Source of the DNA: Candidatus Poribacteria bacterium
Lineage (GTDB): Bacteria; Poribacteria; WGA-4E; PCPOR2b
DNA length: 64,000 nucleotides
Direction of reading: 5' to 3'
Assembly (NCBI GenBank): GCA_965198165.1
Contig: OZ240244.1
Location: forward strand, 1,258,061-1,322,060
Each line of letters begins with the position of its first letter. Position 1 is the first letter of the stretch. The notes under the pieces were generated by a model. The model was not told where the DNA came from and ran no database searches. It saw nothing but the letters and a program-made list of their open reading frames with translations. The position numbers and the translations under genes are program-made. Shown piece after piece: positions 10,650-41,286 of the stretch.

Positions 10650-11855
10650 ATGACTACGGTTAATACGCCATCTATCAGCAAGGAACAGGTCGATTTTTAC
10701 AATGAGAACGGCTTTCTGATTGTTCGCAATGTACTGTCCACTGACGAAGCGGGTGAACTTCGTAGTATCGTCCAACAGGAGGTACAACGTGACGCATACC
10801 CATCGTCGCTGAAGTATCCTGAGCCATCGAAGTACACGGTTAGCGGCAATCGGATGGCTGATGCCGGTATGGCATCCATTGTTGAACATCCGACGGTTGT
10901 TGATGCCGTTGAGGGCTTGCTGGGTCAACCAGCGCATCTGACCGCTTTCGTCGCATATCTGCGTACCCCGGGCGATAAAGGCTCTGGCGCGCATTGTGAC
11001 TATAAACGGTGGCGGCCTGTCGGTTCATCAATGAATTGGCTGTTTGCCATCATTCCACTGACCGATTTTGATCCGGCGTATGGGCCGTTTCTGGTGTCGC
11101 CGAAATCCCATAAACTGCCCCAGGTTATCGACGAAGAGGCGCACATATTAGATCTCACCCGTCCGGATGCCGCGCAACTGCCCCCCTTTATTGACCCTGA
11201 ACTCAAGGCGGGCGACCTACTGCTTGCCAACGAGCACACTTGGCATAAAGCACCGGCGGGCACGACCACAGAAGACCGTTGCGGTATTTTCAATAAGTAT
11301 TGTGCGGTCAACGCTCCCCCCGCGGCGGGCTACTATTCGTACAATCACGCCGCCCTTGATTCATTGAGTGATGCGGGCAAACGGTTGTTGCCCGCCTGTT
11401 TTGATAAGCCTATCACGACAGCACATTTGCTCATCGAGTGCCCGAACGGCGAGGAATCGAAATTCCTGCTTCTGCACGACAAGGAGAACGGCCGGTGGGA
11501 GTTGCCCGGCGGCGAAGCGTGGGAAGAAGAGACGGTCAGTTGGGATGTCGGGGCCCGGATCGGTTCGCTGCAAGCCCTGACCAAAGCGCAACTCGGGTTA
11601 GACATTCCTTGGATGTCCTATATCGCGGATGTTGAAGCGGAAAACGGTATCTGCCGTACGTACGGATACTCGGATGCGAATCTGACCGCCGACTCACTGG
11701 CCAATGGATACTGCGAGTGGTTCACCAAAGACCGCCTGCAACGGATGCTGGGTGAGAGCAACCCTATCTGTCGCACAATTGATACATGGAACCGAGCTGA
11801 TATAATCCGTGGCAAGGGCAAAGCGTGCAGTCAGAGTAAAACGCAATTTGAGTGA
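10650..11855 (+). CDS. phytanoyl-CoA dioxygenase (PhyH) family Fe(II)/2OG oxygenase with a C-terminal Nudix-like extension
   Basis: N-terminal YNENGFLIVRNVLS, then HCD...H(WHKA) facial-triad spacing. C-terminal 150 aa contain FLLLHDKENGRWELPGGEAWEEET, a degenerate Nudix box. Confidence 0.7.
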   Translation: MTTVNTPSISKEQVDFYNENGFLIVRNVLSTDEAGELRSIVQQEVQRDAYPSSLKYPEPSKYTVSGNRMADAGMASIVEHPTVVDAVEGLLGQPAHLTAFVAYLRTPGDKGSGAHCDYKRWRPVGSSMNWLFAIIPLTDFDPAYGPFLVSPKSHKLPQVIDEEAHILDLTRPDAAQLPPFIDPELKAGDLLLANEHTWHKAPAGTTTEDRCGIFNKYCAVNAPPAAGYYSYNHAALDSLSDAGKRLLPACFDKPITTAHLLIECPNGEESKFLLLHDKENGRWELPGGEAWEEETVSWDVGARIGSLQALTKAQLGLDIPWMSYIADVEAENGICRTYGYSDANLTADSLANGYCEWFTKDRLQRMLGESNPICRTIDTWNRADIIRGKGKACSQSKTQFE

Positions 11856-16195: not shown

Positions 16196-16246
16196 AATGT
16201 GAAGTTTATTATTAAAACTGATGACCGAATGTCAGGGAGTTCTATA

Positions 16247-17056
16247 ATGACCCCCAAACAACGCTACCAGTTTGATGTTACCGGCTACCTCCATTTGGAG
16301 AACGTCCTGAGTGCTGAAGAGTTAGCGGCGGCGCGAGAGGCCGCTTTTCGCTATATCAATACCCCTACGGAAGAACTGCCGCCCGGCTTCCGCTCAAATG
16401 GGAAAGGGTTTGAAAATGGCTTTGCGTTTGATAAGGCATTAGAGGCACTGGCGGTGCATCCGGTGACTTGGCCTATTGTCAAGGAGCTGACCAACAACAA
16501 GCCGCAGCTTATGCGGGGTACAATGATGGCTGACAGAGCCGGTGTGTCAGAGTCTGAAGCACCGCTATACCTGCATTGCGCTCGGGAAGATTTCGGGTGG
16601 GAGAGTACCCGTTACCTTGTAAAGGATGAGCGAATCTTCTGCAATGATTTTGTTATTTTCCCGTATTTGACCGATGTGTACCCGGGAGATGGAGGACTAT
16701 TGGTTGTGCCGGGGTCACACAAGGCTGAGTTTCCACGTCCCGAAACGCTGTTTAATCACGGCGTGGTCGAAGACAAAGACAGCCTTCCACCGGGCGTTGT
16801 CAACATCACGCCGAAAGCGGGGGATATGGTGATTATCTCCGAATTGCTGACGCACGGCGCATTGCCGTGGAAACCGAAAGACCGGTATCGTTGCTTTTTG
16901 GTGCTGCGCTATGGCCCACAGTATCGCGGAGAAAGCCGTGTATCCCAAGAGGTCAGAGCGCGTCTATCGCCTGAAACGTTGGAATTGATCGCCCGAGAAC
17001 ACTACACGCACCCGAAGGAAATCATCAAGATGGATGTCATCACTTTGACCACCTGA
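16247..17056 (+). CDS. phytanoyl-CoA dioxygenase (PhyH) family oxygenase
   Basis: PhyH-type N-terminus QRYQFDVTGYLHLENVLS. HxD...H spacing. GGGAG RBS lies before the ATG at 16247. Confidence 0.75.
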   Translation: MTPKQRYQFDVTGYLHLENVLSAEELAAAREAAFRYINTPTEELPPGFRSNGKGFENGFAFDKALEALAVHPVTWPIVKELTNNKPQLMRGTMMADRAGVSESEAPLYLHCAREDFGWESTRYLVKDERIFCNDFVIFPYLTDVYPGDGGLLVVPGSHKAEFPRPETLFNHGVVEDKDSLPPGVVNITPKAGDMVIISELLTHGALPWKPKDRYRCFLVLRYGPQYRGESRVSQEVRARLSPETLELIAREHYTHPKEIIKMDVITLTT

Positions 17057-17153: not shown

Positions 17154-18206
17154 ATGGAAATGAGCAACGTTAAAATTGCTGTTGTCGGTATGGGGATTGG
17201 TCGCCCTAACGGCCGTGCGCTGGCAAAGCATCCGCGGGGCGTGGTCGTGGCACTATGTGACCTCGTCGAAGAGCGGATGCAGGCTTTTGCCAAGGAATTG
17301 CCGAATCCGGTGAAGCTTTATACGGACTACAAAGAGATGTGTCAAGACCCCGAAATTGATGCGGTCTTTGTTGGTACACCGAACCAGTGGCACGCGCCAA
17401 TCGGACGTGAAGCAGTGCGGAACGGCAAGCATGTCCTGATCACGAAACCGCTTGCTGACTCTGAGGGGGCGGCGGGACAGCTCGTCGCGGATGCAGAGTC
17501 GGCTGGTGTTGTCAACATGATGTCTTTGGCGATGCGCTTTAGTGATGCCTGCCAGCATCTTGGCGGTCTAGCGCGGGAGGATTATTTCGGCGAACTCTAC
17601 TATGCAAAGGCGCGCAGTATTCGCCGAAACGGGATACCCGTCTGGAGAGGTTCCAACCAATTGCGATTGGAATTCATTCAAAAAGGGGGCGGTGCTTTTA
17701 GAGATATGGGAGTGCATGTCCTCGATGCGGTCTGGTGGCTCTTGGGAAAACCTAAGCCGTTGCATGTCCTCGGAACCGGAGGGGCAAAGTTTGGACCGCA
17801 CGGTGCGGGGTATACGCAGGAAACGCCCAAAGATATCTACGAACAATTTGCTGTGGACGATTATGCCGGAGGGTTTATCGCTTTTGAAGGCGGGATTGGT
17901 TTACAGGTGGAGAGTTTCTGGGCATCGCATCAGCCAACGGAACGCCAGATTGAGCTCTTCGGCACGGACGGAGGCGCGCAACTATCGCCGTTGATAATCT
18001 ATCGGATGGAGAATGGGGTGGAGCAAAACCTCACTCCTGAACCGATCGAAAAAATGGAGGGGTTCGACCGCATTGCGAATCACTTCATTGGATCCATTCT
18101 TGACGGTGAACCGTGCAAAGCCCCTCTTCGAGATGGTCTAATTGTGCAACAGATGATGGAGGCGGTATTGAACAGTGCCGAGACGGGGCAACCTGTTGCG
18201 CTCTGA
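17154..18206 (+). CDS. Gfo/Idh/MocA family oxidoreductase
   Basis: VKIAVVGMGIGRPNGRALAKHP Rossmann motif. Classic EKPLA-like region (ITKPLADS). Confidence 0.85.
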   Translation: MEMSNVKIAVVGMGIGRPNGRALAKHPRGVVVALCDLVEERMQAFAKELPNPVKLYTDYKEMCQDPEIDAVFVGTPNQWHAPIGREAVRNGKHVLITKPLADSEGAAGQLVADAESAGVVNMMSLAMRFSDACQHLGGLAREDYFGELYYAKARSIRRNGIPVWRGSNQLRLEFIQKGGGAFRDMGVHVLDAVWWLLGKPKPLHVLGTGGAKFGPHGAGYTQETPKDIYEQFAVDDYAGGFIAFEGGIGLQVESFWASHQPTERQIELFGTDGGAQLSPLIIYRMENGVEQNLTPEPIEKMEGFDRIANHFIGSILDGEPCKAPLRDGLIVQQMMEAVLNSAETGQPVAL

Positions 18207-18285: not shown

Positions 18286-19035
18286 CTAATACCCTGCCTT
18301 GATGAGGCCCCAAGCAATAGGCAGTTTTCCTGACGCTTCGACGGATAAAATGTTCCCCTCCATCGCCATTGTGACCTCTTCTTCCGATAAGGCTTTCTGC
18401 CACAGGCGAAGTTCGTCAAGAATGCCATCCCAATACCGCTCTGCCCGATATCGCCCAATTTCCAAAGGCGCGCCGTTGTCCGTTTTACCGGGACCGGCGG
18501 CGTTTTTGTCGTCTAGGTCAAGTTTGCCATCAAGATAGATCTGAATCGTAGTCTTATCCTTGCGAACCGAGACGACATGGTGCCACTTGTCATCGGCGAT
18601 AGGGGTTTTGCCGGGCACCTCTCCGCCTGCCGCACCGTCATGATAGCGGGTGTAAAGCAAGCCATCTCTCAGTTTGATGTAGTATCCAGGGCCGTCCCAC
18701 TTGATAAACATGAACCCTTGCCCAGTTTTCTTACCTGTCTTAAACCAAGCTTCCAGGCTCACGTCAGCCGTGCCCATGTCTAATATTTTATTTGCCGGCA
18801 CTGAGGCTCCCATTGATTTGCCGTCTGTGAACGCAACACCGCCCTTTACTTTCCCTTGCACCCACTTGGGTTTATTCTCAAGTTTTGCCACGAATTTGTT
18901 CGGAGAGATATCCGTAATTTTATCTCCGCTTCCTTCGTCTAGTGGAAAGTAGAACACCAAATTGGCGAAATCCGCGCTATATCCAGATGTGACCATGAGA
19001 CTCAAACCAACAGAAAACAGAACAACACATCGCAA
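18286..19035 (-). CDS. secreted LamG (concanavalin-A-like lectin) domain protein with conserved C-terminal tag ...SVEASGKLPIAWGLIKAGY
   Basis: Signal peptide MRCVVLFSVGLSLMVTSGYSA. Laminin_G_3 end motif LDELRLWQKALSEEEV. The frame starts at TTG, while an AGGAGG-ATGATG at 19054 is offset by 1 nt (see findings). Confidence 0.7.
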   Translation of the reverse strand: MRCVVLFSVGLSLMVTSGYSADFANLVFYFPLDEGSGDKITDISPNKFVAKLENKPKWVQGKVKGGVAFTDGKSMGASVPANKILDMGTADVSLEAWFKTGKKTGQGFMFIKWDGPGYYIKLRDGLLYTRYHDGAAGGEVPGKTPIADDKWHHVVSVRKDKTTIQIYLDGKLDLDDKNAAGPGKTDNGAPLEIGRYRAERYWDGILDELRLWQKALSEEEVTMAMEGNILSVEASGKLPIAWGLIKAGY

Positions 19036-19192
19036 ATCGTTTCAATTGCATCATTTTATTTTCCTCCTGTACAAGATTTAGAGTCTGGACGTATCTTTAC
19101 GCCCACAAGTTCAAGAAGGGTAGGAAAGGGATTTCCTACCCACGGGGCCAGGGTGGGGAAGGGATTTCCCACCTACGGAAGTTTTGTGCATA

Positions 19193-20434
19193 CTACTGCT
19201 GTCTCTTGAGCGTCCCCCAAAGCGTTGATAGTTTCCGTTTGGGTGTTACGGATAATCCCTTTTTGAATCTTTCCGCTTCCTCCTGTGTTTCAGGGAAAAC
19301 CGGATTTTGGGTCGCAGAAATTAGGATTCCGTCCAATTCCGTGCCGTCCTCCCGTTGAATGATATTTAACGTATATTCTCCCCTTCTGATGTCAACGGCG
19401 AGTTGTTGCTGTCCCGGTGCGCCAGCGCAGTTTCTGCTGTCCATCTTCGACCATCTCCACGTCGCGATTGGTTGACCTGTGTCCCAGATATGCGTCTGAT
19501 CTCCCGGCATTTTTCCGCCGCAGTTCTCACCAGACCGGGGTTTGGGATTATCAATGCTCCAAAAGAATGAGTCATTTCCCCCATCAGTGGCGATTACCCG
19601 GCCCCAAAAGTAATATGTTCCTGTCTTAGGGATAACGATTTCAAAGTTCGCAAGGCCGTTGCCATCGTTGCCTGCTCCCTGCGGTGCGACCACATATTTT
19701 CCACCGAAAGCGGTTTTTTTATCTTTTTTTATCTCAAAGGGGGCAGTGACTTTAGCCGCGTCTTCGGCATCAATGTAGATGGTGAAAACGGTAATCCTTT
19801 TAACTATCGGTGGCACAACGAGGTCTCTGTCTTTGAGATTGTTGGCACCCCGTTCTGTTTCAGGAAACTTTGGATTTTTCGTATCAGTAACCAGAATGCC
19901 GTCCAATTCTGTGCCATCCTCTCGTTGAATAATATTCAACGTATATATGCCTTTTTTCAGTTTAACGGCAAGTTGGTCTTGGCCGGCTGCTCCGTCACAG
20001 TTTCTGCTATCCATTTTAGACCATTCCCAATCGAGGCGAGGATTGCCGGTGTCCCAAATGTGTACCTGATCCCCTGGGATTTTCCCACCGCAATTCTCCG
20101 CTGACCTTGGAGCGGGATCATCAATGCTCCAAAAAAAAGAATCGTTGCCGCCATCGGTTGCAATCACACGCCCCCAAAAATAGTAGGTGTCATTTTTGGG
20201 CACCTCGAAGGCATACCGAACAAAACCGTTGCCATCATTCCCGGCTCCCTGCGGTGCCACAACATACTTCCCACCGAACGCTCCCTTTTTTTCTCTGACC
20301 TCAAGCGGTGCACTCAGGTCACCGGCATCTTCCGCGTCAATGTAGACCATAAAGGCGGAACTTATCCCACTCGTTGTGCTTAGGAGAAATAGAGTTAATA
20401 TTAGTTTTCTGAATGCCATGTTTGCTCTTTGCAT
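19193..20434 (-). CDS. secreted protein with two tandem CBM-like jelly-roll domains and conserved C-terminal tag ...RKLSTLWGTLKRQQ
   Basis: Signal peptide. Two about 180-aa repeats (YIDAEDA...GGKYVVAPQGAGNDGNG...YYFWGRVIATDGGNDSFFWSID...IIQREDGTELDGIL) resembling the CBM6/35-type xEAED sugar-binding fold. Confidence 0.75.
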   Translation of the reverse strand: MQRANMAFRKLILTLFLLSTTSGISSAFMVYIDAEDAGDLSAPLEVREKKGAFGGKYVVAPQGAGNDGNGFVRYAFEVPKNDTYYFWGRVIATDGGNDSFFWSIDDPAPRSAENCGGKIPGDQVHIWDTGNPRLDWEWSKMDSRNCDGAAGQDQLAVKLKKGIYTLNIIQREDGTELDGILVTDTKNPKFPETERGANNLKDRDLVVPPIVKRITVFTIYIDAEDAAKVTAPFEIKKDKKTAFGGKYVVAPQGAGNDGNGLANFEIVIPKTGTYYFWGRVIATDGGNDSFFWSIDNPKPRSGENCGGKMPGDQTHIWDTGQPIATWRWSKMDSRNCAGAPGQQQLAVDIRRGEYTLNIIQREDGTELDGILISATQNPVFPETQEEAERFKKGLSVTPKRKLSTLWGTLKRQQ

Positions 20435-20461
20435 AGAATATAGGTCAATATATGAAGATTA

Positions 20462-20600
20462 AAAAATAAGTTGGGTAATTTCATACGGATGGCCGGTGCG
20501 GTTGCATGACGTTTATCCGAGGACGGATGGTCGCGTGAGCGAGCGCAAAAAATAAATGGGGTAATTGCATACGGACGACCGGTGCGGTTACCCGTTTAAT
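20462..20600. repeat. dispersed copy of the 118-bp satellite family
   Basis: Shares aataagt(t/a)gggtaat..catacgga..ccggtgcggtt..gacgtttatccgaggacggatggtcg and gtgagcgagcgcaaaaaataaatggggtaat with 8690-9030. Confidence 0.7.
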
Positions 20601-20726
20601 TCTTAAGGTTAATATGAATGTAGGCCGAGATTCCAAAATGGACGAATTGCATACGTCAAGCTAGGAATCTCGAGCTACAATCAAATCAATGAACCTTCGG
20701 AAGTCGCAGGTTCAAATATCAACTGA

Positions 20727-21395
20727 TTAGCGTTGTGCCTTAATTGCTCCCCAAGCAGTCGCTAATTTGTCTTTCGCTTCGACAGCGACTATGGCTCGTG
20801 CTTCCGCATTCGTTTTCGGCAATTGATCGGCTTGCAGGTCTTCATCCGTGACGAGGATACCATCCAATTCTGTGCCATCCTCGCGTTGGATGATGTACAG
20901 CGTGTATGTTCCTTTCGTCAGGTCAACAACGAGCTGGTCTGCTCCATCGGTGCCAGCGCAATTTCTGCTGTCCATCTTTGACCATCCCCACGTTGTGATT
21001 GGTTGACCTGTGTCCCAGATATGCTTCTGATCTCCTGGGATTTTTCCACTACAGTTTTCGCCGGACTTCTGCTCGGCGGCGGAAACGTTAATGCCCCAGA
21101 AGAAGGAATCGTTACCGCCATCGAGCGCAACTACCCGTCCCCAGAACCGGTACTTGCCACCGGGGACAGAAAATTCATACGTCGCAATGGCATTTCCATC
21201 ATTTCCGCTCCCCTGTGGGGCCAGGATATACCCATCGCCGAACGCATCTGCCTTATCCTTTTTGACCTCAAACGGTTTCGTAATCGGTGTGGAAGTGTTC
21301 TCTGCATCAATGTAATGCTTGAAAGCCGATGCGATCCCAACGCATGTCAAGACCATGGCCAAAATAGCAATTAGTGAGCAAATTCTTGCAAACAT
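20727..21395 (-). CDS. secreted single-domain CBM-like protein with conserved C-terminal tag ...AKDKLATAWGAIKAQR
   Basis: Signal peptide MFARICSLIAILAMVLTCVGIASA. Same domain as the 19193..20434 repeats. AAGGAG RBS. Confidence 0.8.
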   Translation of the reverse strand: MFARICSLIAILAMVLTCVGIASAFKHYIDAENTSTPITKPFEVKKDKADAFGDGYILAPQGSGNDGNAIATYEFSVPGGKYRFWGRVVALDGGNDSFFWGINVSAAEQKSGENCSGKIPGDQKHIWDTGQPITTWGWSKMDSRNCAGTDGADQLVVDLTKGTYTLYIIQREDGTELDGILVTDEDLQADQLPKTNAEARAIVAVEAKDKLATAWGAIKAQR

Positions 21396-21534
21396 AGAAA
21401 ATTATCTCCTTAGTTTAGTTTTTCTGAATACAGCCTAAAGCTGTTTGTGTTGTGAATTATTATCAGGATGAACGACTCAACTTGTCGCATCCGGATTTCG
21501 AGGATAGCTGGCTACTGTAGCGTTCTGTGGGGCT

Positions 21535-22260
21535 TCACCGCTTAGCTTTGATGTTTCCCCAAATTTCAGCAAGTTTGCCAGTCGCCTCGACCGATTCCGC
21601 AGTCTTTTCCTTGGCCTTTTCATAGTCGTCATCGGTAGGACGGTATTGGGAGCTGTCTGTCCACACGAAGACATCCATGAACCGGGTAGAATTCCCTTGT
21701 CTGTGGTAGATATACATCCAGTTTTCGCCATTCTGAAGTTCCTTCTTATGCCCCTCGCGGCCGCCACCATCCCATCCCCAAGCGGCAACATTTGCCTCAA
21801 AAATTCGGTCAAGCGCATTGACGAATGGTGCGACTCCATCGCCCCCGGGAAAGGGTGCTTTGTCAGGAATCTTCTTGTTCGCCCCCTTGACAAGCAGGTA
21901 ATCCGATTGGTTACTTGGATTGACGACGCGCCCCCAGAAGTACCATAGACCTTTCTTGCCGCCATCCGTTTTACTGATGTCGAATGAATAGACAAGCCTC
22001 CCCCCTACACCACCGGTTCGAGTAACCGTTTTTCCGAATGCACCTTTCGGGGGGGCAGGCGTACCGCCTTCCTCTCCGGCGATCGGGAAGAATTGATGGC
22101 CTTTGGGTTCTCGTGCATCATACGCTTCGGCTTCAAACCAGATTTGAACTCCACCGCCGACTTTTGAGACTTTGAAGACATCGACGGCATCCGCTGGCAT
22201 CGTCACCAACAACAGCACCAGGGTAACGCAGAGTAGTGCTCGCTGATACCATTGAGACAT
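21535..22260 (-). CDS. secreted CBM-like (divergent subfamily) protein with conserved C-terminal tag ...ATGKLAEIWGNIKAKR
   Basis: AAGGAG RBS before the ATG at 22260. Signal peptide MSQWYQRALLCVTLVLLLVTMPADA. Domain motifs QIWFEAEAYD...WYFWGRVVNPSNQSDYLLV...IYHRQGN. Confidence 0.8.
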   Translation of the reverse strand: MSQWYQRALLCVTLVLLLVTMPADAVDVFKVSKVGGGVQIWFEAEAYDAREPKGHQFFPIAGEEGGTPAPPKGAFGKTVTRTGGVGGRLVYSFDISKTDGGKKGLWYFWGRVVNPSNQSDYLLVKGANKKIPDKAPFPGGDGVAPFVNALDRIFEANVAAWGWDGGGREGHKKELQNGENWMYIYHRQGNSTRFMDVFVWTDSSQYRPTDDDYEKAKEKTAESVEATGKLAEIWGNIKAKR

Positions 22261-22307
22261 GATGATTTTCTCCTTTCCATCATTTGAGGAGTGTATCGAG
22301 ATGCGAC

Positions 22308-23021
22308 TTAACGCCTCGATTTGATTCGTCCCCAAACGGTAGCAAGTTTGCCGGCGCGCTCAACTGCTACTGCGGCTGTGGCACTGTTATAATCGGCATC
22401 GGTAGGCGTATAATCAGGGCTGTCTGCCCACACGAAAACATCCATCTTCTTGGAATCATTTCCCTGTCGGTGGTATATGTGCATGGTGTTCACGCCATCT
22501 TGAAGGTCTTTGGTATGCCCTTCTCCATGGTCAGCTCTCCCCCAGTCCCAGGCACCTACGTCACCGATATTTTGTTCAAAAATCCGGTCATCGTCGTTGA
22601 CAAAGGGTGGGGTATCGTTGTCGCCCGGATATGGTGGACCACCAGGGATCTCTGCATCGTCCGGATCGCCCTCTACGAGCATATAATCCGAATTATTGGC
22701 AGGATTCACAACTCGCCCCCAGAAATACCATGTGCCACCCTTGCCACCGGCCGCACCGACATTAAATTTGTAGGTCAGCCGGCCGCCCGCGGCACCCGCA
22801 CGAGTAAGTGCTTTACCTATCGCACCAGCTTCGTCAACAAGCAGGAAAAACTCATCGGTATCGGGATCTCGTACATCCCAATCTTCCGCTTCAAACCAGA
22901 CTTGACTTCCGCCTCCATGGTTCGATATTTTGAGATTCTTGACCGCATGGGCGGGTATTGTCAACAGCAACAACGCAACAAAAATGGTAAGCGTTAGTTG
23001 CACATACCAACGATGTAACAT
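22308..23021 (-). CDS. secreted CBM-like protein (paralog of 21535..22260) with conserved C-terminal tag ...RAGKLATVWGRIKSRR
   Basis: AAGGAG RBS before the ATG at 23021. Signal peptide MLHRWYVQLTLTIFVALLLLTIPAHA. Motifs QVWFEAEDWD...WYFWGRVVNPANNSDYMLV. Confidence 0.8.
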   Translation of the reverse strand: MLHRWYVQLTLTIFVALLLLTIPAHAVKNLKISNHGGGSQVWFEAEDWDVRDPDTDEFFLLVDEAGAIGKALTRAGAAGGRLTYKFNVGAAGGKGGTWYFWGRVVNPANNSDYMLVEGDPDDAEIPGGPPYPGDNDTPPFVNDDDRIFEQNIGDVGAWDWGRADHGEGHTKDLQDGVNTMHIYHRQGNDSKKMDVFVWADSPDYTPTDADYNSATAAVAVERAGKLATVWGRIKSRR

Positions 23022-23697
23022 ATTAATCTTCTCCTTATTGAGAGTTTGCCTATAGAGCCGCAGATTTTGTAGGATCATGCGGATTTCCACTTCGTGAATC
23101 CGGATTTTCAGAATGTTGCGGAAGTATAGGTCGGTTTTGAAAGTTAAAATGTGATACGTGCTTCGGCCAAAACACCTTGGCCTTCAAACACGTTTTGGAT
23201 AACGGATGATGCACTTATACGGATTCAATTTGATCGGTTGAGAATCCGTGAAACACCCATCCGCTTTCTGCCCACTTGGGCTTGAATCGTTCCAGTCAAA
23301 TTTATGGAACGAAACGTCATTCCGATCCCCTAGTGCTTTGTCACGTCAAAGTTGATGGGTATAGAAGTCGCGAGCACAGCTCGCTCCTACAAGAAGATAA
23401 GCGCAGCGCGGAATCCAGACGCGCTCTAAATACTTTTCACCCATCATTTTAATGTGGACAGAACACTAGAGTGGAAGATTAGGGGAAAAACTTCTACCCA
23501 ACCTTCCATTCTTCCAACCTTCCATTCTTTTTCATCATATATGCAATTGCGATTTATGTCCAGTGAAATTTTCCCTTTTTCTATAATCAACCAGATCAGG
23601 ACATCTTGCTTGAATCCGACATACTCCCCTTGACGCGCTGCGTCGAAAATCGGACGCAGCGCATCATGGGAGCGAGTTGTGGGTGAACTGACCAAGG

Positions 23698-24480
23698 CTA
23701 TTGTTTAATGTCGCCCCAAACGGTGGCTAATTTCCCTTTTGGAGAAACAGCGAGAACGGAGCTAAATCCCTTACTCATAATCTGCTTAATATCCTTCTCA
23801 TCAACAGCGACATTAAAGATGGCAACCTCGTCAATCTTACCGCCGAAAAAGAGTGTGTGGTCGCCGAGGTTTCCAATCAAAACTTTTTTCGGGGTCACCA
23901 TAACGTCGTAGTCAATTTTTTTCTCACTCTCTTTGACCCCATTGACATAAATCGCAACCGTTTTCCCGTCTCTATCGTGAACGCCGGCAAGGTGGGACCA
24001 GGCGTTCTTCTTTATGTCGGTTGTGCCTTTCACATTAGATTGGGCCGTATTCCCGGGGTCTCGGTGTGATACAAATGCCTTCCCCTGCAAAATACTCATG
24101 TAATACGACCTCTCTGTTCCTGACCAACCCTTTCCCACAATCATTTCATGCGTGGCGAGATTAATGACCGTAGGAAATACCCATACGGACAATGTAAAAC
24201 TGTTGACATCTAGGCTTTTATCGTTTCCGCAATCCACAAAAGTCTTGCTGTCATCAAATTCCAAACTCTTGCCGAACTTCCCATTAGTCCATTTCGGACC
24301 ATCCAGTTTTCCGTCATTGCCATTCCCGGAGAGATCTTCGGCGACATTGCCTGAGCCCTGGTCAAAGAGCCACAGCCCGGCAAGCGTTTTGGGGTCAATC
24401 TCGGCATTACTTATGCTGGTGAACATCAGGCTTAGGATGACTATGCTGATGCTGAATACAGAATATCTTGCCCTTAACAT
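23698..24480 (-). CDS. secreted LamG domain protein with conserved C-terminal tag ...SPKGKLATVWGDIKQ
   Basis: GGGAGG RBS before the ATG at 24480. Signal peptide MLRARYSVFSISIVILSLMFTSISNA. Laminin_G_3 end motif IDEVAIFNVAVDEKDIKQIM. Confidence 0.8.
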   Translation of the reverse strand: MLRARYSVFSISIVILSLMFTSISNAEIDPKTLAGLWLFDQGSGNVAEDLSGNGNDGKLDGPKWTNGKFGKSLEFDDSKTFVDCGNDKSLDVNSFTLSVWVFPTVINLATHEMIVGKGWSGTERSYYMSILQGKAFVSHRDPGNTAQSNVKGTTDIKKNAWSHLAGVHDRDGKTVAIYVNGVKESEKKIDYDVMVTPKKVLIGNLGDHTLFFGGKIDEVAIFNVAVDEKDIKQIMSKGFSSVLAVSPKGKLATVWGDIKQ

Positions 24481-24596
24481 CTTAATGTCCTCCCTTTGCG
24501 TTTGGTGATAAAGTTCCGACAATTTTCCAATAATTTCATTCTAACAGAATCGCATAAAGATGTCAAGCAGTCTTTTTTCGCCTTCCCCCCTCTCAA

Positions 24597-25448
24597 TTAC
24601 CCACGCGAAGGCTCTGTCATCCGCTCTCGCGCTTGGCGGGACAGTTCGGCGAGATGCCCATCGTTCGCCATCACCTGTTCTAAATGCCGCATTCGCTGTG
24701 GGCCCGCGGTGCGAACCATTTTCTCACCGTATTTCCGGTCAATCCAAAAACGCGCCGAGTTGCCGATATATTTGCGTAAATCCTCCAAACGGTCTTCCGG
24801 GTAGCGTTGGCAGAGGTTCATCGTGAACATGCGTCGGTGGGTTCCACCCCCAAATGCCGCATGTTTGGTATTGTGGTTGAACAACACAACATCACCCGGC
24901 CCGGTTTCAAAGGCGACCGCGGGCACGTCTCTGCCGTGAACGCTCCATCGCTCTTGACTTTCTCGAATCTGCTGGGAAAGCACATCGGCATAACCATCCC
25001 CGAAGATATGACTGCCCGGAATCACGCGAAGGCTTCCGGTGTCGCGGGTCAACCGGTCAAGGTAAAACGCGATTTTGATGTGCATCGGGTCTTCCGGCTT
25101 ATGGCCCCCATCGGAATGCCAACCTGTGTCACCGACGTAGAAATTCCCATCGCTTCCCATATAGTTGAAGTCGTCGCCCAATAAAGAGGTTGCGATGTCT
25201 AAAATACGAGGGTCGTCTAGCAGAGCAGAGAGGACCTCGCTCTGATCAATAAATGGGACAATACAGGAACGGGCTTGTCCGTTGTGGGGTTTCCCGTCGT
25301 GTCCCCCGCCACGCTCTGCCCAAACTGCTTCAAACGCGCTATCAATTTCATCAATACGGTTTGCCATCAGCCCGGGGAAACTCAGATAACCGAAGGTCTG
25401 AAAGAAATTCATCTGCTGGTCTGTCAGTTTGAAATCTTGGTCGTTCAT
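24597..25448 (-). CDS. phytanoyl-CoA dioxygenase (PhyH) family oxygenase
   Basis: Motifs FFQTFGYLSFPGLM, GWHSDG (HxD) and the distal His (HNTKHAA). Confidence 0.8.
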   Translation of the reverse strand: MNDQDFKLTDQQMNFFQTFGYLSFPGLMANRIDEIDSAFEAVWAERGGGHDGKPHNGQARSCIVPFIDQSEVLSALLDDPRILDIATSLLGDDFNYMGSDGNFYVGDTGWHSDGGHKPEDPMHIKIAFYLDRLTRDTGSLRVIPGSHIFGDGYADVLSQQIRESQERWSVHGRDVPAVAFETGPGDVVLFNHNTKHAAFGGGTHRRMFTMNLCQRYPEDRLEDLRKYIGNSARFWIDRKYGEKMVRTAGPQRMRHLEQVMANDGHLAELSRQARERMTEPSRG

Positions 25449-25463: not shown

Positions 25464-26525
25464 TTAGAAAAATCCGGATATCGAAATCCTCTGTGAATTG
25501 CCGAGGTCATGGGCGTTGAACGCATAATCTACAAATAGCGTCGCTTTGTCGATGCGAAGGCGCAGGCCGCTTCCTGCTGCAAGTCTGTCTCCGTCTGCAC
25601 CGACGCGAAACGCAACCACCTTGAATAACCGATACTCCGCCCCGATGCGAAAAAGGGTCTCGCTACCCTTACCTTCGGCGAGGTCTTTTGCACCTGTTTC
25701 TAGGTCTGCTCCGACTGTCACATCTCCAATTATCGGGGGGGTAACGTCGTAGGATACGCCGAGCCGCATTCGTCGGTTGCGAGTGAACGTCGGACGGGCG
25801 GGGGTGTTCCAGCGAATCTGTGTGCCCGTGGCATCCTGTAGCATCGCCCCAATCCGAAGTCCGTGCAGTGGCTCTACCATTAAACCGAGGTCAATGCCGA
25901 AACCGCTTCCGCTGTTTACGAAAATTGATTGGCGGAGTAGCTTGAGATTTCCACCGACCGCGAGTTCGGGGTTGATTTGACGAGCATAGGAGATTAATAC
26001 GGCATTGTCGGTGTTGCTGAAAAACTCTTCGATTGTAGGGCGGTCAATGTATAACTCCCCTTCATCTTTAATGCCGTTACCATTTTTGTCTTGGAAATCC
26101 CCCAAAATGCCGTTCTCGTTGGTATCAATGAAGGTTGTTTTCGGAATATCGTCCACACCGAGCCGAATCCAACTCACGCCGACAGTTCCGATGTCTTCAA
26201 TCTGCTGGACATAATTGACGAAATTGTACGTTACCAATCCCTTGCTCAAGAAACTGCCCCCTTCCACGCCGAAGGAGTCTGAGTACATCGCAGAGAAGGC
26301 GTGTTTTTGAACTCGCGTTAGCCCCGCTGGATTCCAGTAGGCCGCTGTCGCATCATCCGCGACCGATACAAACGCACTTCCCATCCCCAATGCTCGTGCA
26401 CCGACACCGTGACTGAGAAATTCCGCTGCGTGACTTCCTTCTTCGGCAGAGGTTCCCGCTGGTATGGAGACACAACCGATACATAGAAGGAGGAATACAA
26501 TATGATATTTGGATATTTTTCCCAC
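25464..26525 (-). CDS. PorV/PorQ-family-like outer-membrane beta-barrel protein
   Basis: Signal peptide. Hallmark N-terminal GARALGMGSAFVSVADDATAAYWNPAGL. Beta-barrel-like alternating pattern. C-terminal ...ISISGFF (aromatic terminal residue). Confidence 0.65.
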   Translation of the reverse strand: MGKISKYHIVFLLLCIGCVSIPAGTSAEEGSHAAEFLSHGVGARALGMGSAFVSVADDATAAYWNPAGLTRVQKHAFSAMYSDSFGVEGGSFLSKGLVTYNFVNYVQQIEDIGTVGVSWIRLGVDDIPKTTFIDTNENGILGDFQDKNGNGIKDEGELYIDRPTIEEFFSNTDNAVLISYARQINPELAVGGNLKLLRQSIFVNSGSGFGIDLGLMVEPLHGLRIGAMLQDATGTQIRWNTPARPTFTRNRRMRLGVSYDVTPPIIGDVTVGADLETGAKDLAEGKGSETLFRIGAEYRLFKVVAFRVGADGDRLAAGSGLRLRIDKATLFVDYAFNAHDLGNSQRISISGFF

Positions 26526-26624: not shown

Positions 26625-28598
26625 CTATCCCGGTGCAAAATCATAAATCGGTGTACGGATAATAACGCTCAACACGCTCCAGAATGCCCCAACGCAGTAT
26701 TCGCCTAGAATCACACCGAAGAAGAAACCGACCGCTTTTCTATACAACGCCGGCCCGCCGAACCTGAGAACAAACCATTTGATAGTTGTACTGATTACCA
26801 AGCAGGTCCAGAAATACCCGACACCACCGGTCATCGAGAGCGCGTAGCCAGCGGGGTGTAGCGGCCACCAGATAAATCGCATCCGCATCAACATTAACAG
26901 AAACGTAAAGCCCATGCTCCCTGCCATAAATCCCATCGCAGTTGGGTCTGGGTCACGCGGATATGCAAGCAAGCCCGCCAGCCACCGGAATTGATAAATG
27001 TGCCCGATTGAAGGGCCGACTCCGCCGCCCGCACCTGTGATGGCTCCACCGAGACGGTAGAGTTCACTCACAGTCGCCCAAAAGGATGCCAGCGCACCAA
27101 ACAGCACGGCAATCATCATCGCTGCCACAAGCCGCTTTGTATTCATCCCGGTTCTCTCGGCGATTTTGAACGCTTCCAACTGATGCGGCATAATGTGTTC
27201 CCGATAACCACGTCCACTGAAGAACCAGAAGTAGGGAAAGACTGTTAGGTTATTTGGCCCGATTCGGCGTGTTCCCAAAATATTAATTAGGAACTGTTGA
27301 CCGTTGACCATACCCGCCATCTCATGAGCAGGAGGCCCTATCTCCGCACGTACCCGGGTTATCGCCACGGAAAGGGCGTAGAAAAACGCAAAGTACGGCA
27401 GAATGATTAGGAGCGTCATCCCCGCTTTCAGGCAGAACCAAGTAATAAACAGCGCGGAGAGAATTATCAGCACAAGGCATGTTCGGTAGCGAATCGGTTC
27501 ATCAGAATCGTCAAGCCCATTCGGCCTTCCCAAAATCGTCCGTGCAACGTTGAGCAGATGCCTCCGTGTTATGACTAACGTTGCGACAAATATTGCCAGC
27601 CACGCCCCGATGGATTGTTCGCTGAAGTAAGGAAAAGGGGGTGGAATTGCAACGGCACTCCCAAAAACACGTTGGAGTTTTTCGACAATGTAGAAGAACC
27701 AGATCGAGAATGAGAGATCAAGTGGCAACAAAAATCCGAGCCCAATCACAAACGGATAGAGCGGGACAGTGATAGTTCCAACGGCGTTCCACGGTTTTTC
27801 AGTGAAGAACGTCCCCCAATTCCGGGCATTATGCCGGACGCTGAAATCTGGAAGGATGGGATAGAAATGGGCGAGACCGTGCCAGACATCGAGAGTCGCC
27901 GCGCTGATAAACCCTATCCACAGAATCCGATTTCGGAAAAAACTAGCAGACCCACCCCGCTCGGTAATCGCCAGCGGCAGTTGAATAATCGGGTAAGCGA
28001 GTTTTTCATGCTCTGTCCACTGCTTGCGAACAATCACGTTCAAACAGATCATGATTGTACCCCACGGGAGGATGAACGCTGTCCACCACAGTGTCGGCCA
28101 GAGCCATGCCCGGAGAAGTTTTTCTGTGTAGAACGGCGTATCGCCTTCGTAGAAGCCGCGGATGAGCTCCTTGTCCGCAACAACGAGATGTTTTGGAATA
28201 TGGTTGTGAAACAGGCCTGCCCAATCGTTTTCGAGCGTGGCGAACCAGAACGCATGGGGAATCGCGGGGATAGTCAGCGCCAGCGTATCGTGTCCCGCTA
28301 GGCCAGAGGCGATTGAGAGCATCGCGTAAATTGTAACCATTTCGCCTTGGGTCAAGGCCGCCCTCGGAGCGAACCGCTTGATAATTAGATTAAGCAGAAT
28401 GAGAAAAAACAGATTCAGGACAACATTCCAGAACAACGAAATCGTGGTTGGATGCCCAGAATGCCAGACGCATTCAACTTCGATAATCCAAAAAACGTTG
28501 GGCGGAATGAGAAGTAAGGCAATTAAAATCGCACGCCAGGTTACCCCTGATGTTTGGTGCGCGCGCTCTTTTTCAATGGCAACCATTGATGACCTCAA
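26625..28598 (-). CDS. large (657 aa) polytopic integral membrane protein of unknown function
   Basis: At least 12 hydrophobic helices. Trp/Phe-rich loops. No recognisable catalytic motif by eye. Co-oriented with, and 100 bp upstream of, the PorV-like gene. Confidence 0.6.
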   Translation of the reverse strand: MRSSMVAIEKERAHQTSGVTWRAILIALLLIPPNVFWIIEVECVWHSGHPTTISLFWNVVLNLFFLILLNLIIKRFAPRAALTQGEMVTIYAMLSIASGLAGHDTLALTIPAIPHAFWFATLENDWAGLFHNHIPKHLVVADKELIRGFYEGDTPFYTEKLLRAWLWPTLWWTAFILPWGTIMICLNVIVRKQWTEHEKLAYPIIQLPLAITERGGSASFFRNRILWIGFISAATLDVWHGLAHFYPILPDFSVRHNARNWGTFFTEKPWNAVGTITVPLYPFVIGLGFLLPLDLSFSIWFFYIVEKLQRVFGSAVAIPPPFPYFSEQSIGAWLAIFVATLVITRRHLLNVARTILGRPNGLDDSDEPIRYRTCLVLIILSALFITWFCLKAGMTLLIILPYFAFFYALSVAITRVRAEIGPPAHEMAGMVNGQQFLINILGTRRIGPNNLTVFPYFWFFSGRGYREHIMPHQLEAFKIAERTGMNTKRLVAAMMIAVLFGALASFWATVSELYRLGGAITGAGGGVGPSIGHIYQFRWLAGLLAYPRDPDPTAMGFMAGSMGFTFLLMLMRMRFIWWPLHPAGYALSMTGGVGYFWTCLVISTTIKWFVLRFGGPALYRKAVGFFFGVILGEYCVGAFWSVLSVIIRTPIYDFAPG

Positions 28599-29211: not shown

Positions 29212-31545
29212 ATGCACATAAAGCGAGCCGTTCTCAAATTTGCGATAATGCTATTCTATTTGATTCCTGTTGTCTCTGCTCAACAAGCGGATATAAGTAC
29301 GCACCTCCAACAACTTAATCATAAAGATGTCCCCGTGCGCCTCTACGGTGCGTATGCGTTGGGCGTAATTGGAGATGAACAAGCCGTTCAACCGTTGATT
29401 AAACTGCTCAACGACTCCGACCTATACGTGCGCGTGGCGGCCATTGATGCACTCGGTGAAATCGGTCATTCTACTGCGGTTAAGTCTCTGAACGGCTTGC
29501 TAGAAGATGAGAATTATCTCATCCGTGCCCATGCGGCGAGGGCGTTGACGAAAATCGTACCCGAAGCGGAGCAAACGCACCAGATCAAACGTTACACCAA
29601 AGATCTCAGCGACCCTGCGCGCAGTATTAGATTGCGGGCCTTGAAGGCATTGATATCGCTTCAGCCAGATCTGGCAACGGTCTATCGGCGGCGGCTCGCA
29701 ATCATCGACCTCACTGATGCGGATGAAACGATTCGCGCAAACAGTGCCGTTGAGCTGGCGAGCATCGGCGATGAGGATGCTGTTGAACCGTTAAGCGGCA
29801 TCCTCACAGACCAGAGCCGTATGGTCCGCAGAACTGCGGTGATAGCACTGAGACAGATTGCCACACGTCTCGGTAGCAGGACGATAGCCGCCGCTACCCA
29901 ACTGCTTGTTGACGCTTTGCAGGATGAGGACAATCAGGTTCGTAGTCACGCAAGCGATGCGGTTGTACTAATTGGCCCTGATGTGGTGCAACGGTTAGTC
30001 GCTGCCTTGATGACCCCGGATGGGACGGCCAATTCAGCTGTTGTCAATACGCTGGTACAGATTGGCGAACCGGCAGTTCAGCCGTTGACCGCGTTGCTTG
30101 GAGCAGACAGTGTGACGACCCGCGCTGTTGCCGTAGGGGTACTGAGCCAAATTCAACCGGATAAGGCGGCGAGCTACCAGATTCTACGGAGTCTCACGGA
30201 GCTCAAAGACCCAGAGGTCTCGGTTCGGATATTGGCACTCAATCGTTTGGGCGCCATTGGGCATCTGCCGGATTCGAGAGGGTTGGTCGCTGCCCTCTCT
30301 GACCCAGATGCACGGGTTCGCCGAAGTGCGGCTCTCACGCTCGGCAAAATTGACCAACCTCCGCTCGGTGAACTTATCCTGCTCTTGAGCGATGAGAACC
30401 CTTCAACCCGGTGGAATGCGATGATGGCGATAGGAATCATCGCATCGCAACTGGAGACGCAGGAGCAACTGCAACCGGCGATTAATCCGTTGGTGAATGC
30501 ACTGATAGGTTCAGATGCCTCAAGTCGTTTAAGGGCGGCGGATACCTTAAAACGGATTGGCTCGTCAGCAAGTGACGCGATTGCAACACTGCTCAATGAT
30601 GAAAACGCGATGGCCCGTGCCGTAGCAGCAACCCTACTGACTGAAATTGAACCAGAGATGGCGATGACCTATCAACGAACCCGCTATCTCGCCGACTTAC
30701 AGGACGCAGATGCCACCATCCGTGCAGCGGCTATTGGTCCCCTGGGAAGGGGTGGCACCCCTGACACGGCGGAACTCTTGGTCGAAGTGCTTAAAGACAG
30801 AAACCCAATCGTGCGCCAACATGCGGCGACAGCGTTGGTACAGATTGGTGAATCGGCGATTTCGGCACTTTCAACACAGCTCAGTGCTCAAGCCTCAAAC
30901 ACACGTCTGAGTGCCATTCGCATTCTCGGCGAGATTGCGGAAACGCTTCCAAACACTACCCCAATGTCGTCCGTTGTGAACATGCTTATCGAGCGACTTC
31001 AGGATTCGGATGACGCGGTTCGACTTGCCTCCATCAATACACTGGTGAAGTGTGGGGTACCAGCTATTGATGCCCTTATCGCTCAAATGGGTGCTCCTGA
31101 TACCGTGGTGCGGTCAGCGGCAACGAAGGCGTTGGGTCGGATGGGAGATACGGCAAAGGAAGCGTTGATTAGGACATTGTCAAACCCCAAAAGCACCGTT
31201 CGGCAGAATGCCGCGGCTGCGCTTGGACAGATAGTTCCTGATGAGGCGCAATTCTACCAAGTGACGCGATACATCAACGATCTCAGGGATACAGATGAAA
31301 CGGTGCGAGCAAGCGCGGCAAGAATGTTAGGACACATCGGTGCCCCTCGTGCATTTGAACAGTTGGTTGCGACGTTGGGCGACACAGATTATCGGGTCAG
31401 ACTCCATGCAGCGGAAGCATTGGGCAAGCTCAATGACAAACGAGCGATGCCTGCACTGGAGGCGGCAAAGAACGACAAAGACGATGTGAAAGCCGTTGAG
31501 GAAGCGGCTAAAAATTCGTTTAATTGGCTCAAACGCCTTCCGTGA
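29212..31545 (+). CDS. HEAT/PBS-lyase repeat protein (secreted)
   Basis: 777 aa. Signal peptide. About 20 tandem HEAT_2-like repeats (VR..A..ALG.IG...AV..L...L.D). Confidence 0.8.
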   Translation: MHIKRAVLKFAIMLFYLIPVVSAQQADISTHLQQLNHKDVPVRLYGAYALGVIGDEQAVQPLIKLLNDSDLYVRVAAIDALGEIGHSTAVKSLNGLLEDENYLIRAHAARALTKIVPEAEQTHQIKRYTKDLSDPARSIRLRALKALISLQPDLATVYRRRLAIIDLTDADETIRANSAVELASIGDEDAVEPLSGILTDQSRMVRRTAVIALRQIATRLGSRTIAAATQLLVDALQDEDNQVRSHASDAVVLIGPDVVQRLVAALMTPDGTANSAVVNTLVQIGEPAVQPLTALLGADSVTTRAVAVGVLSQIQPDKAASYQILRSLTELKDPEVSVRILALNRLGAIGHLPDSRGLVAALSDPDARVRRSAALTLGKIDQPPLGELILLLSDENPSTRWNAMMAIGIIASQLETQEQLQPAINPLVNALIGSDASSRLRAADTLKRIGSSASDAIATLLNDENAMARAVAATLLTEIEPEMAMTYQRTRYLADLQDADATIRAAAIGPLGRGGTPDTAELLVEVLKDRNPIVRQHAATALVQIGESAISALSTQLSAQASNTRLSAIRILGEIAETLPNTTPMSSVVNMLIERLQDSDDAVRLASINTLVKCGVPAIDALIAQMGAPDTVVRSAATKALGRMGDTAKEALIRTLSNPKSTVRQNAAAALGQIVPDEAQFYQVTRYINDLRDTDETVRASAARMLGHIGAPRAFEQLVATLGDTDYRVRLHAAEALGKLNDKRAMPALEAAKNDKDDVKAVEEAAKNSFNWLKRLP

Positions 31546-31610: not shown

Positions 31611-32390
31611 ATGCCACAAATACCACCAGTATGGGTAGGAGTTGCTATCGTTGTTTTTATCGTTTTCATGATGACCGTTGTGCGGATTTTGAAGGAGTAC
31701 GAGCGTGCGGTTGTCTTTCGGTTCGGGCGATTAAGTCGCGTGGGAGGTCCCGGGCTCGTCTGGCTGATTCCATTCTGGATTGAGCGAATAGAGCGGATAA
31801 GTCTCCGCGTTATCGTCCAAGACGTTACCCCCCAAGATGTCATTACGAAAGACAACGTTTCTGTGAGTGTGAACGCTGTGCTCTCCTTTCGGGTGATTGC
31901 CGCTGATAAGGCGGTCATTGAGGTTGAAGACTTTGGATTCGCAATCGGTCAGGTTGCTCAGACGACGCTTCGGAGTGTGCTCGGAAGGGCGGAACTCGAT
32001 GACCTGCTCTCAGAGCGGGAAAAGTTGAACCAAGACCTTGAGAATATCATCGCCCAACACTGCGAACCGTGGGGTGTCGAGGTACTTGCGATGGAAATCA
32101 AACACGTCGACCTGCCTGTGGAGATGCAACGTGCGATGGCAAAACAGGCGGAGGCGGAGCGGGAACGGCGAGCAAAAGTGGTTCATGCGGACGGGGAATT
32201 AGAATCTGCCCGAGCTTTAACGGATGCCGCCGCGATGCTCAGCTCCACACCCGCCGCTGTGCAACTCCGATTTCTCCAAGCCCTAATCGAAGTCTCTGCG
32301 AATTCCAAGAATTCTACGCTGGTCTTCCCACTTCCAATTGAGCTCCTGAAGGGATTGGTAAAGCTTGGCGACGATTCAGCAACATCATAA
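31611..32390 (+). CDS. SPFH/band-7 (stomatin-like) membrane protein
   Basis: N-terminal TM helix. [16 protein letters not shown]...[11 protein letters not shown]-terminal coiled coil ([11 protein letters not shown]). Confidence 0.85.
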
Positions 32391-32623
32391 GTTGCCTGAA
32401 TTGCGTCAAGTCATCTTGCCACCCGTTAGGGCAGGATTCACAGGATTAAGAAATCGGTTTAATATTCTGCGATTTTGTTGCCTCAGGTCACCCCGCAGAA
32501 AAAGGGCGTAGCGTTAGCATCGAGCGGCGATACGCCCTCTGTCGGTTTCCGTGCGTCAGTGCTATTATTCTTACAAAATTGTCCAAAGCTTAGGGGGTAG
32601 TCAATATCAGGGGGATTAAGACA

Positions 32624-33892: not shown

Positions 33893-33983
33893 GAATCACT
33901 ACCCAGGAGCAGGTCACCAAAATGCGCGGCAACAGGATAGGGAATCTGGTAGACTTGTTGTAGGAGTAGATACGGATTAGGCA

Positions 33984-35758: not shown

Positions 35759-35904
35759 TATAACCGACAACCTCACATATAATATTAAGCAGGTTTAAGA
35801 ATAAAAGTTTCGATTCCGATTCCAAAGAAATCAAGTTTTTGCAAGGGACGGGCGGGGGGACCCCGCCCCTACGGGTTCAAGAATGTGAAAATTACTATTA
35901 AAAC

Positions 35905-36777: not shown

Positions 36778-36872
36778 GCCTAACCCCTTTTCAAACAGAC
36801 TCTGAACACAGGTGCGAATAGTATGCAAGGGCTTGGATTGGGCGATCCAACCCGAACGACTGGCAGATCAGA

Positions 36873-36908
36873 AAAGCCCCAACCATATCAAATGGCTGGG
36901 GCTTTTTG
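36873..36908 (+). terminator. rho-independent terminator
   Basis: aaaagccccaaccatatcaaatggctggggctttttg is a GC stem plus T-run. A duplicate lies at 37344-37380. Confidence 0.7.
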
Positions 36909-36960
36909 AATAACGGGTTCGACCCGGGTTGCCCTCTACACGGTAGATTATCGCTTAGGT

Positions 36961-37966: not shown

Positions 37967-37988
37967 TATAACCGACAATCAGTATCTG

Positions 37989-38501: not shown

Positions 38502-38632
38502 GCCTAACCCCTTTTCAAACAGACTCCGAACACAGGTGCGAATAGTATGCAAGGGCTTGGATTGGGCAATCCAATCCGAACGACTCGGGGTGGAAAAGAA
38601 TCAAATCCATCTTCCTGTATCTGTGATTAAGT

Positions 38633-41265: not shown

Positions 41266-41286
41266 ACTCTATAGGAGCCTGCATAG

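Follow-up and report, generated by a model that had tools for sequence, protein, structure and literature searches.

Why should consecutive genes for secreted proteins that carry different domains all end in nearly the same short peptide? The question is raised by a 64,000-nucleotide stretch of a Candidatus Poribacteria bacterium genome (GCA_965198165.1, contig OZ240244.1, positions 1,258,061-1,322,060 of the forward strand), referred to below as the window, in which six minus-strand genes at window positions 18286-24480 all close with KLxxxWGx[I/L]K followed by one to four residues. A first-pass annotation of the window had read this tail, here called the tag, as a candidate for a new sorting signal. 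We find that the tag is a modular C-terminal element, conserved as a peptide and carried by Sec-exported proteins of several unrelated folds.

Six secreted proteins and their shared tail

All six open reading frames (ORFs) reported by the first-pass annotation, with the tails quoted there, are present in the window. The first and the last encode secreted LamG_3 proteins, as had been claimed: a 249-residue protein (18286-19035, minus strand; tail ...LSVEASGKLPIAWGLIKAGY; tag at 18289-18348), in which PF13385 covers residues 75-221 with 89.1 bits, and a 260-residue protein (23698-24480, minus strand; tail ...LAVSPKGKLATVWGDIKQ; tag at 23701-23754), in which it covers residues 81-232 with 85.7 bits, the gathering score being 27.6. 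In both genes the LamG model stops about 28 residues short of the C-terminus, and since it ends at residue 232 of the 260-residue protein, the tag lies outside the domain model. The four genes between them, also on the minus strand, encode a secreted 413-residue protein with two copies of an uncharacterised 'YIDAED' domain (19193-20434; tail ...LSVTPKRKLSTLWGTLKRQQ; tag at 19196-19255), a secreted single-domain 'YIDAEN' protein of 222 residues (20727-21395; tail ...VAVEAKDKLATAWGAIKAQR; tag at 20730-20789), a secreted 'WFEAEAYD' protein of 241 residues (21535-22260; tail ...ESVEATGKLAEIWGNIKAKR; tag at 21538-21597) and a secreted 'WFEAEDWD' protein of 237 residues (22308-23021; tail ...VAVERAGKLATVWGRIKSRR; tag at 22311-22370). 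None of these four 'xEAE' proteins, the 413-residue one included, matched a family in Pfam or NCBIfam scans, and a PDB sequence search with the 222-residue protein was also without match. Their two subfamilies, for which a CBM-like jelly-roll fold had been suggested, are distant homologues of each other (26% identity, E 3e-6 between the 241- and 222-residue proteins). The window by itself holds two cargo classes, and the wider data described below hold at least six. Only five homologues of the 222-residue protein were found in an index of 5.8 billion proteins, with the tag present in four of the four that have an intact C-terminus.

Read from the sequence, the N-termini of all six proteins are signal peptides of the signal peptidase I type (e.g. 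...GIASA-F, ...IPAHA-V and ...SISNA-E), in line with the Sec-type signals annotated before. Independent gene calls on a 99%-identical contig gave identical lengths for the genes of 260, 237, 241 and 222 residues; the 413-residue gene was called there with 408 residues, and the 249-residue LamG gene was split in two.

The pattern [KR]L...WG.[IL]K, searched in all six frames of the window, matched exactly six times, and each match lay no more than 13 residues from a stop, closing a frame of 212-409 residues. Windows shuffled by mononucleotide or by triplet gave 0.005-0.01 expected matches, so that chance or artefact is excluded as the source of the tag (6 observed against about 0.01 expected). 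Synonymous variation between the paralogous tails had also been claimed, and it is confirmed. Over the 17 aligned tag codons, pairs of codons for the same residue differ in 60% of cases, with four codons in use for the invariant Leu and three each for the invariant Val and Gly. This codon divergence argues that conservation acts on the peptide and not on a DNA repeat, and it rules out a DNA-level repeat or a recent duplication as the origin of the tails.

From 168 distinct tails we derived the consensus [LF][APS]V[ED][PA]xGKLAT[T/R/V]WGx[L/I]K, followed in 81% of them by one to three residues, for a total tag length of about 17-20 residues; the final residue is mostly R, Q or K. At position -5, Val is kept in 96%, and E/D at -4 and P/A at -3 are also conserved. 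As these three positions were absent from every search pattern, they provide independent confirmation of the conservation. Ahead of the tag, 13 residues (positions -20 to -8) show no conservation and form a linker. This variable linker and the different domains in front of it bear out the earlier statement that the tail is not part of a shared domain. The 17-mer is non-hydrophobic (mean Eisenberg hydrophobicity 0.09) and shows the alternation expected of a strand, with a hydrophobic moment at 170 degrees of 0.405 versus 0.206 in shuffled peptides. The helical hydrophobic moment is not above the shuffled value, which rules out an amphipathic-helix membrane anchor. Conserved almost without a break from G-1 to G+6 and placed at a fixed distance from the free C-terminus, the tag looks like a peptide that is read by one common partner.

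Carriers and distribution of the tag

We scanned one genome per species, for 185,579 species, with a degenerate DNA version of GKLATxWGx[ILMF]K, for which about six matches were estimated to arise by chance. The scan returned at least 118 stretches, most of them labelled Poribacteria and the rest 'uncultured bacterium' or one of three other labels, the exceptions among the matches listed being two very small contigs assigned by binning to Planctomycetota and Deltaproteobacteria, and a contig of Prosthecobacter. The tag is essentially restricted to one phylum, Poribacteria. When these loci were re-scanned at the peptide level, 170 of the 171 matches fell 1-12 residues before a stop, and single metagenome-assembled genomes (MAGs) contributed at least 7-11 tagged genes to this sample, often in tandem.

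The 135 full-length carriers that we extracted have a median length of 268 residues. In a Pfam census of these carriers, Laminin_G_3 was found in 89, 3keto-disac_hyd (3-keto-disaccharide hydrolase, DUF1080) in ten, Kelch propellers in three and CBM9 in two, with single carriers of Big_12 plus a lamin-tail domain (Ig/LTD), of ankyrin and of BNR. Its occurrence on several Pfam folds means that the tag is not the last strand of one shared domain. By a crude criterion, applied alike to carriers and neighbours, 94% of the tagged ORFs have a signal-peptide-like N-terminus versus 33% of the other ORFs at the same loci (Fisher P 1e-39). The first-pass annotation had suggested checking whether motif carriers have signal peptides, and this fraction indicates that the tag is not placed on cytoplasmic proteins.

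Protein databases gave a consistent picture. A tail profile searched against the index of 5.8 billion proteins found 35 short fragments (31-79 residues) with the tag at the extreme C-terminus in 34, and those with a name are 'Candidatus Poribacteria'; these fragments show C-terminal position and poribacterial origin and are too short for a census. Against 1.84 billion representatives the profile gave 5,682 matches, which are not tag counts: the profile still held the last LamG strand and helix (positions 5-25), and giant multi-LamG proteins dominate. Tagged proteins are only those whose match extends to profile position 47 or further, and in these the match finishes at the C-terminus.

Variant tags (e.g. 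SKLTTTWGSMK, GKLATSWAAIK and SKLTATWGSIK) were seen on environmental metagenome contigs (L171, L176, L180, L193-L198, L201 and L202), often directly adjoining genes of the DUF6785 family described below. The taxonomy of these contigs is unassigned and their environments are varied, one sample name pointing to Hainich groundwater, so the tag is probably not confined to sponge symbionts.

The tandem array also varies between close relatives. A 2.29-Mb ENA contig (L001), 99% identical to the window, encodes residue for residue the PorV-like protein found upstream of the window's tagged genes. At a junction corresponding to window positions 23325-23469, this contig carries a 2.25-kb insertion (L001, 13057-15308) with two extra tagged CBM9 genes, of 340 and 320 residues, whose tails are DKLPTMWGKIKRGYK and DKLPTIWGKIKHTRE. 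An indel of this kind between 99%-identical strains means that the copy number of the array varies within the population. In two further relatives the gene order is as in the window.

The genetic neighbourhood

The genes from position 28598 down to 18286 lie on one strand. Upstream of the tagged genes they comprise a DUF6785+DUF6784 polytopic membrane protein of 657 residues (26625-28598, minus strand; PF20581, 536 bits), an outer-membrane barrel of the PorV/PorQ family with 353 residues (25464-26525, minus strand; NF033709) and a PhyH-family Fe(II)/2-oxoglutarate dioxygenase assigned by Pfam (24597-25448, minus strand), which sits with short gaps between the PorV-like gene and the tagged genes. 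Gaps of 15-150 bp separate the membrane protein, the PorV-like gene, the PhyH gene and the first tagged gene. The first-pass annotation had named both the 657-residue protein and the PorV-like protein as candidate machinery.

For the DUF6785 protein, AlphaFold run on a 70-sequence alignment gave a confident, all-helical polytopic model (pLDDT 89, pTM 0.92). In a Foldseek search the only significant PDB neighbour of this model was barley Yellow Stripe 1 of the OPT family (7wst/7wsr; E 3e-9, probability 1.00, TM 0.66-0.72 over about 670 columns). Pfam at E up to 0.1 returned DUF6785 and DUF6784 only and no OPT, a PDB sequence search had no match, and a literature search on DUF6785 or 'PorV2' found nothing relevant. 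The predicted fold thus matches that of the OPT/Yellow-Stripe-like transporters (TC 2.A.67) at a sequence identity of only 13%. On the strength of this model the protein is secondary-transporter-like with a predicted OPT/Yellow-Stripe fold, which gives Pfam DUF6785/DUF6784, a family without assigned function, a confident fold assignment. The same match rules it out as a sortase-like enzyme.

Copies of DUF6785 were seen at L022, L035, L059, L090, L105, L110 and L122-L205, with several paralogues in Poribacteria and orthologues in Armatimonadota. Three loci from MAGs labelled Armatimonadetes contain DUF6785 and have neither tagged genes nor a PorV-like gene.

The association of DUF6785 with the tag was followed from both sides. 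Paralogues with 28-49% identity occur in nine of the 118 tag-selected 8-kb blocks, where they mostly adjoin a tagged gene directly. Tag-like ORFs are found in 16 of 80 metagenomic loci that had been picked solely for DUF6785, and tagged genes fill 8 of the 128 immediate-neighbour slots there. With distance decay within loci as the control, the density of tagged genes is 0.60 per 10 kb within 1.5 kb of DUF6785 versus 0.15-0.29 beyond 3 kb (P 0.035). DUF6785 and the tag are genuinely associated, but only modestly so. Of the machinery role proposed for the 657-residue protein, the co-location with tagged genes therefore stands to this modest degree, and the predicted fold is that of a transporter and not of a sorting enzyme.

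The 353-residue barrel passes the NF033709 subfamily cutoff (105.2 bits, cutoff 90) and stays below the equivalog cutoffs for PorV (21.9/250 bits), PorQ (46.7/220) and 'PorV2' (142.6/325). A PorV-like gene comes after DUF6785 solely at the loci of its closest orthologues (L001-L003, L125-L127, L134 and L141), including four loci in which no tagged gene was found (L125, L126, L127 and L141). It may be a partner of the tag, to which its link is weak.

The commonest neighbours of tagged genes belong to the PhyH and GFO/IDH/MocA families, with 27 and 23 copies in the 118 loci (in many of L004-L121). The window itself holds genes of these families at 10650-11855, 16199-17056, 24597-25448 and 17154-18206. 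PhyH is an abundant family in these genomes, and this neighbourhood may reflect a functional linkage or just family expansion in Poribacteria.

Some poribacterial proteins carry genuine C-terminal domains (CTDs) of type IX secretion (T9SS), type A (TIGR04183, 45 bits against a cutoff of 23), ending ...NFPNPFNPETWIPYQL...RKLLIRK. They are LRR/cadherin proteins, also with FlgD_ig, encoded on the minus strand at L025:5633-7999, L045:7540-7998, L098:4387-6261 and L117:4931-7081, in the same 8-kb blocks as tagged genes. Genuine type A CTDs, with PorV-family proteins of the phylum as further indirect support, indicate that a T9SS-like pathway is probably present in Poribacteria, outside Bacteroidota.

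Several other features were observed. A second conserved set stands beside a tagged gene and a DUF6785 paralogue at L022 (880-1521 and 1692-2609) and L055 (1870-3276, 3266-3877 and 4281-5186). It comprises a 468-residue PorV/BamG-like barrel (NF033709, 61 bits, below cutoff), a lipoprotein of about 205 residues and a protein of about 303 residues without family match. In the window, a 777-residue HEAT-repeat protein with a signal-peptide-like N-terminus (29212-31545, plus strand) is divergent from the DUF6785 gene, an arrangement kept in L001 and L002. Further along, positions 32000-42000 have a GC content of 0.42-0.47 versus about 0.50 and look like a defence island, with two DndB-like genes (32624-33892 and 34490-35758; PF14072 in the gene calls of L001) and a HATPase_c_3 protein with weak similarity to the restriction enzymes BbrUII/HgiDII (39667-41265). 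Mobile-element genes lie at 4865-6082 and 53172-54383, namely an IS605 OrfB/TnpB-type protein with a Cas12f1-like TNB domain and a YhgA-like Transposase_31.

Candidate roles of the tag and comparison with known systems

With a probability of roughly 0.5, we take the tag to be a C-terminal recognition element, specific to this lineage, by which a common partner in the envelope would recognise Sec-exported binding proteins, probably by strand augmentation, and would sort, retain or dock them. The six genes encode Sec-exported, mostly lectin-like binding proteins, and the tag would be read after export to the periplasm. There, a shared envelope partner would take hold of the amphipathic strand-forming peptide near the free C-terminus, probably through beta-strand augmentation. 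Cargo domains of many kinds would in this way be sorted to, retained at or docked at a single site, on the cell surface, in the outer membrane or in a membrane complex. The sorting or docking role and the binding as a beta-strand are what we infer from the peptide and its carriers. The earlier proposal of a new sorting signal is accordingly plausible, partly supported and not contradicted: the carriers are exported, the tag follows a variable linker and there is modest co-location with a membrane protein, so that nothing named at the outset as speaking against a signal was clearly found. A more specific version, an unrecognised poribacterial sorting or docking pathway in which a strand-forming tag of about 17 residues addresses dozens of lectin-like proteins per genome to a partner, maybe the DUF6785 protein as receptor or a PorV-family barrel, is tentative, and we lean somewhat against it.

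Several observations weigh against the recognition tag. Two thirds of the carriers (66%) are LamG proteins, and the spread of the tag could partly be the expansion of one LamG family with occasional shuffling of 3' ends. The tail logo is partly shaped by the patterns used for collecting tails, and in an AlphaFold model of one tagged LamG protein, a poor model from a shallow alignment (pLDDT 55), the tail was modelled as coil. As for partners, the PorV-like gene is practically missing from the 118 tag loci, where it is represented by just two weak N-terminal matches, 109 of these loci are without a DUF6785 gene inside the 8-kb block, and no sortase-like family is found among their commonest neighbours, the only recurrent membrane protein being DUF6785. 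The share of LamG_3 carriers and their very similar length (median 268 residues) would suit an explanation in which the tag is a structural or self-association strand, folded back on its cargo or swapped into oligomers or arrays, and has spread by LamG expansion and recombination between tandem paralogues. The strand-type periodicity and the variation of array copy number between 99%-identical strains fit it as well. However, the same 17 residues stand on Kelch, CBM9, Ig/LTD, ankyrin and DUF1080 proteins, which offer no common packing surface, the linker before the tag is unconserved, and the almost contiguous conservation from G-1 to G+6 at a fixed distance from the C-terminus looks like recognition by a common partner; we consider a purely structural strand improbable.

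Two further explanations name the partner. If the tag were to dock on the OPT-like DUF6785 protein, periplasmic binding proteins (LamG, CBM, Kelch and DUF1080) would insert their free C-terminal tag peptide into this oligopeptide-transporter-like protein, which would tether them to the inner membrane or let them hand over their ligand, in the manner of binding-protein-dependent secondary transport, and the locus would be a nutrient-capture unit made of an OPT-like permease, a FadL/PorV-like outer-membrane channel, a PhyH oxygenase and binding proteins. The confident model that matches only Yellow Stripe 1, the paralogues in nine of the 118 tag loci that mostly adjoin a tagged gene, the peak of tagged genes within 1.5 kb in the 80 loci chosen for DUF6785 (P 0.035) and the co-strand genes of the window with their gaps of 15-150 bp all agree with this, and a tag lying one to three residues from the free C-terminus would suit a site that binds peptide termini. 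The enrichment is modest, though, and more than 90% of the tagged genes are not near DUF6785. No tagged gene lies within 10 kb of the orthologues in Armatimonadetes-labelled MAGs or of those from a thermophilic poribacterial MAG, and GFO/IDH/MocA and PhyH are commoner neighbours, so the co-location may only reflect family abundance. We know of no binding-protein-dependent OPT transporter, nor is any OPT transporter known to operate together with tagged periplasmic binding proteins, and on balance we find this role unlikely. The other explanation regards the tag as a minimal signal related to the T9SS, replacing in short form the CTD of about 80 residues and read by a PorV/PorQ-family barrel that shuttles cargo to the cell surface. 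The barrel does pass the NCBIfam PorV/PorQ subfamily cutoff and partially matches the 'putative type IX sorting system protein PorV2', genuine type A CTDs exist in Poribacteria, sometimes at the same loci as tagged genes, and both signals stand on Sec substrates and have basic end residues. Yet the barrel falls below the PorV, PorQ and PorV2 equivalog cutoffs, the tag has a quarter of the length of any CTD with known function, and profile-profile comparison with poribacterial CTDs finds nothing. The PorV-like gene adjoins the closest DUF6785 orthologues with or without tagged genes and is nearly missing from the tag loci; it therefore tracks the transporter and not the tag, which weakens its proposal as machinery. 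Moreover, the PorV homologue could instead serve the genuine type A CTD proteins. A T9SS-related signal is thus quite unlikely.

Poribacteria are uncultivated, and many are abundant sponge symbionts whose lectin-like and 'eukaryote-like' surface proteins are believed to mediate the capture of nutrients and the interaction with the host. With an address label in common, their surface or periplasmic proteome could be defined computationally, and the label would also serve as a handle on the machinery, as a peptide for pull-downs and as a motif for profiling.

How does the tag compare with known C-terminal signals? The first-pass annotation recognised in it no described sorting signal, and this holds for the catalogues and literature searched. 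NCBIfam (June 2026) and Pfam, run on full proteins and isolated tails at E up to 10, place no model in the tag region, and literature searches with the motif strings, or with Poribacteria together with sorting signal, LamG, laminin or type IX secretion, gave no relevant publication. T9SS CTDs (TIGR04183/PF18962; type B, TIGR04131) resemble the tag in their C-terminal position on Sec-exported lectin-, Ig- or adhesin-like cargo of diderms, in having no transmembrane segment, in their basic end residues and in a PorV-family barrel encoded nearby. They are, however, folded beta-sandwiches of about 70-100 residues, whereas the tag has about 17-20 residues and no detectable similarity to them. The T9SS type A and B domain models (TIGR04183, PF18962 and TIGR04131) had no match on the six proteins or their isolated tails, and hhalign gave a probability of 0.2% for the tag against poribacterial CTDs. 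This rules out a remnant of a T9SS CTD and agrees with the distinction from the CTD of about 80 residues that had been drawn earlier.

The PEP-CTERM/exosortase, GlyGly-CTERM/rhombosortase, LPXTG/sortase, MYXO-CTERM and PGF-CTERM/archaeosortase systems share with the tag a short, lineage-specific C-terminal motif on otherwise unrelated exported proteins, in many copies per genome. In these sortase-type signals a hydrophobic transmembrane helix and then a basic cluster come after the motif, and a dedicated transpeptidase co-occurs with them. The tag, in contrast, has no hydrophobic helix; as pointed out before for PEP-CTERM, LPXTG and GlyGly-CTERM, its 17-mer is non-hydrophobic, and only one to three residues follow the motif in 81% of the tails. 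The outer-membrane beta-signal recognised by BamA/BamD is likewise an amphipathic beta-strand motif at the extreme C-terminus of Sec-exported proteins, but it forms the closing strand of a barrel in the membrane and as a rule has an aromatic end, whereas the carriers of the tag have soluble lectin-type domains and tails that mostly close with R, Q or K. With neither a membrane helix nor a folded domain, the architecture of the tag is unlike that of any catalogued signal. The LPXTG, PEP-CTERM, GlyGly-CTERM and T9SS CTD signals each led to new secretion or anchoring machinery, and the tag shares their genomic signature, being specific to a lineage, present in many copies on unrelated cargo and strictly C-terminal; if it does serve an unrecognised poribacterial sorting or docking pathway, it would represent a new class of bacterial C-terminal sorting signal beside them.

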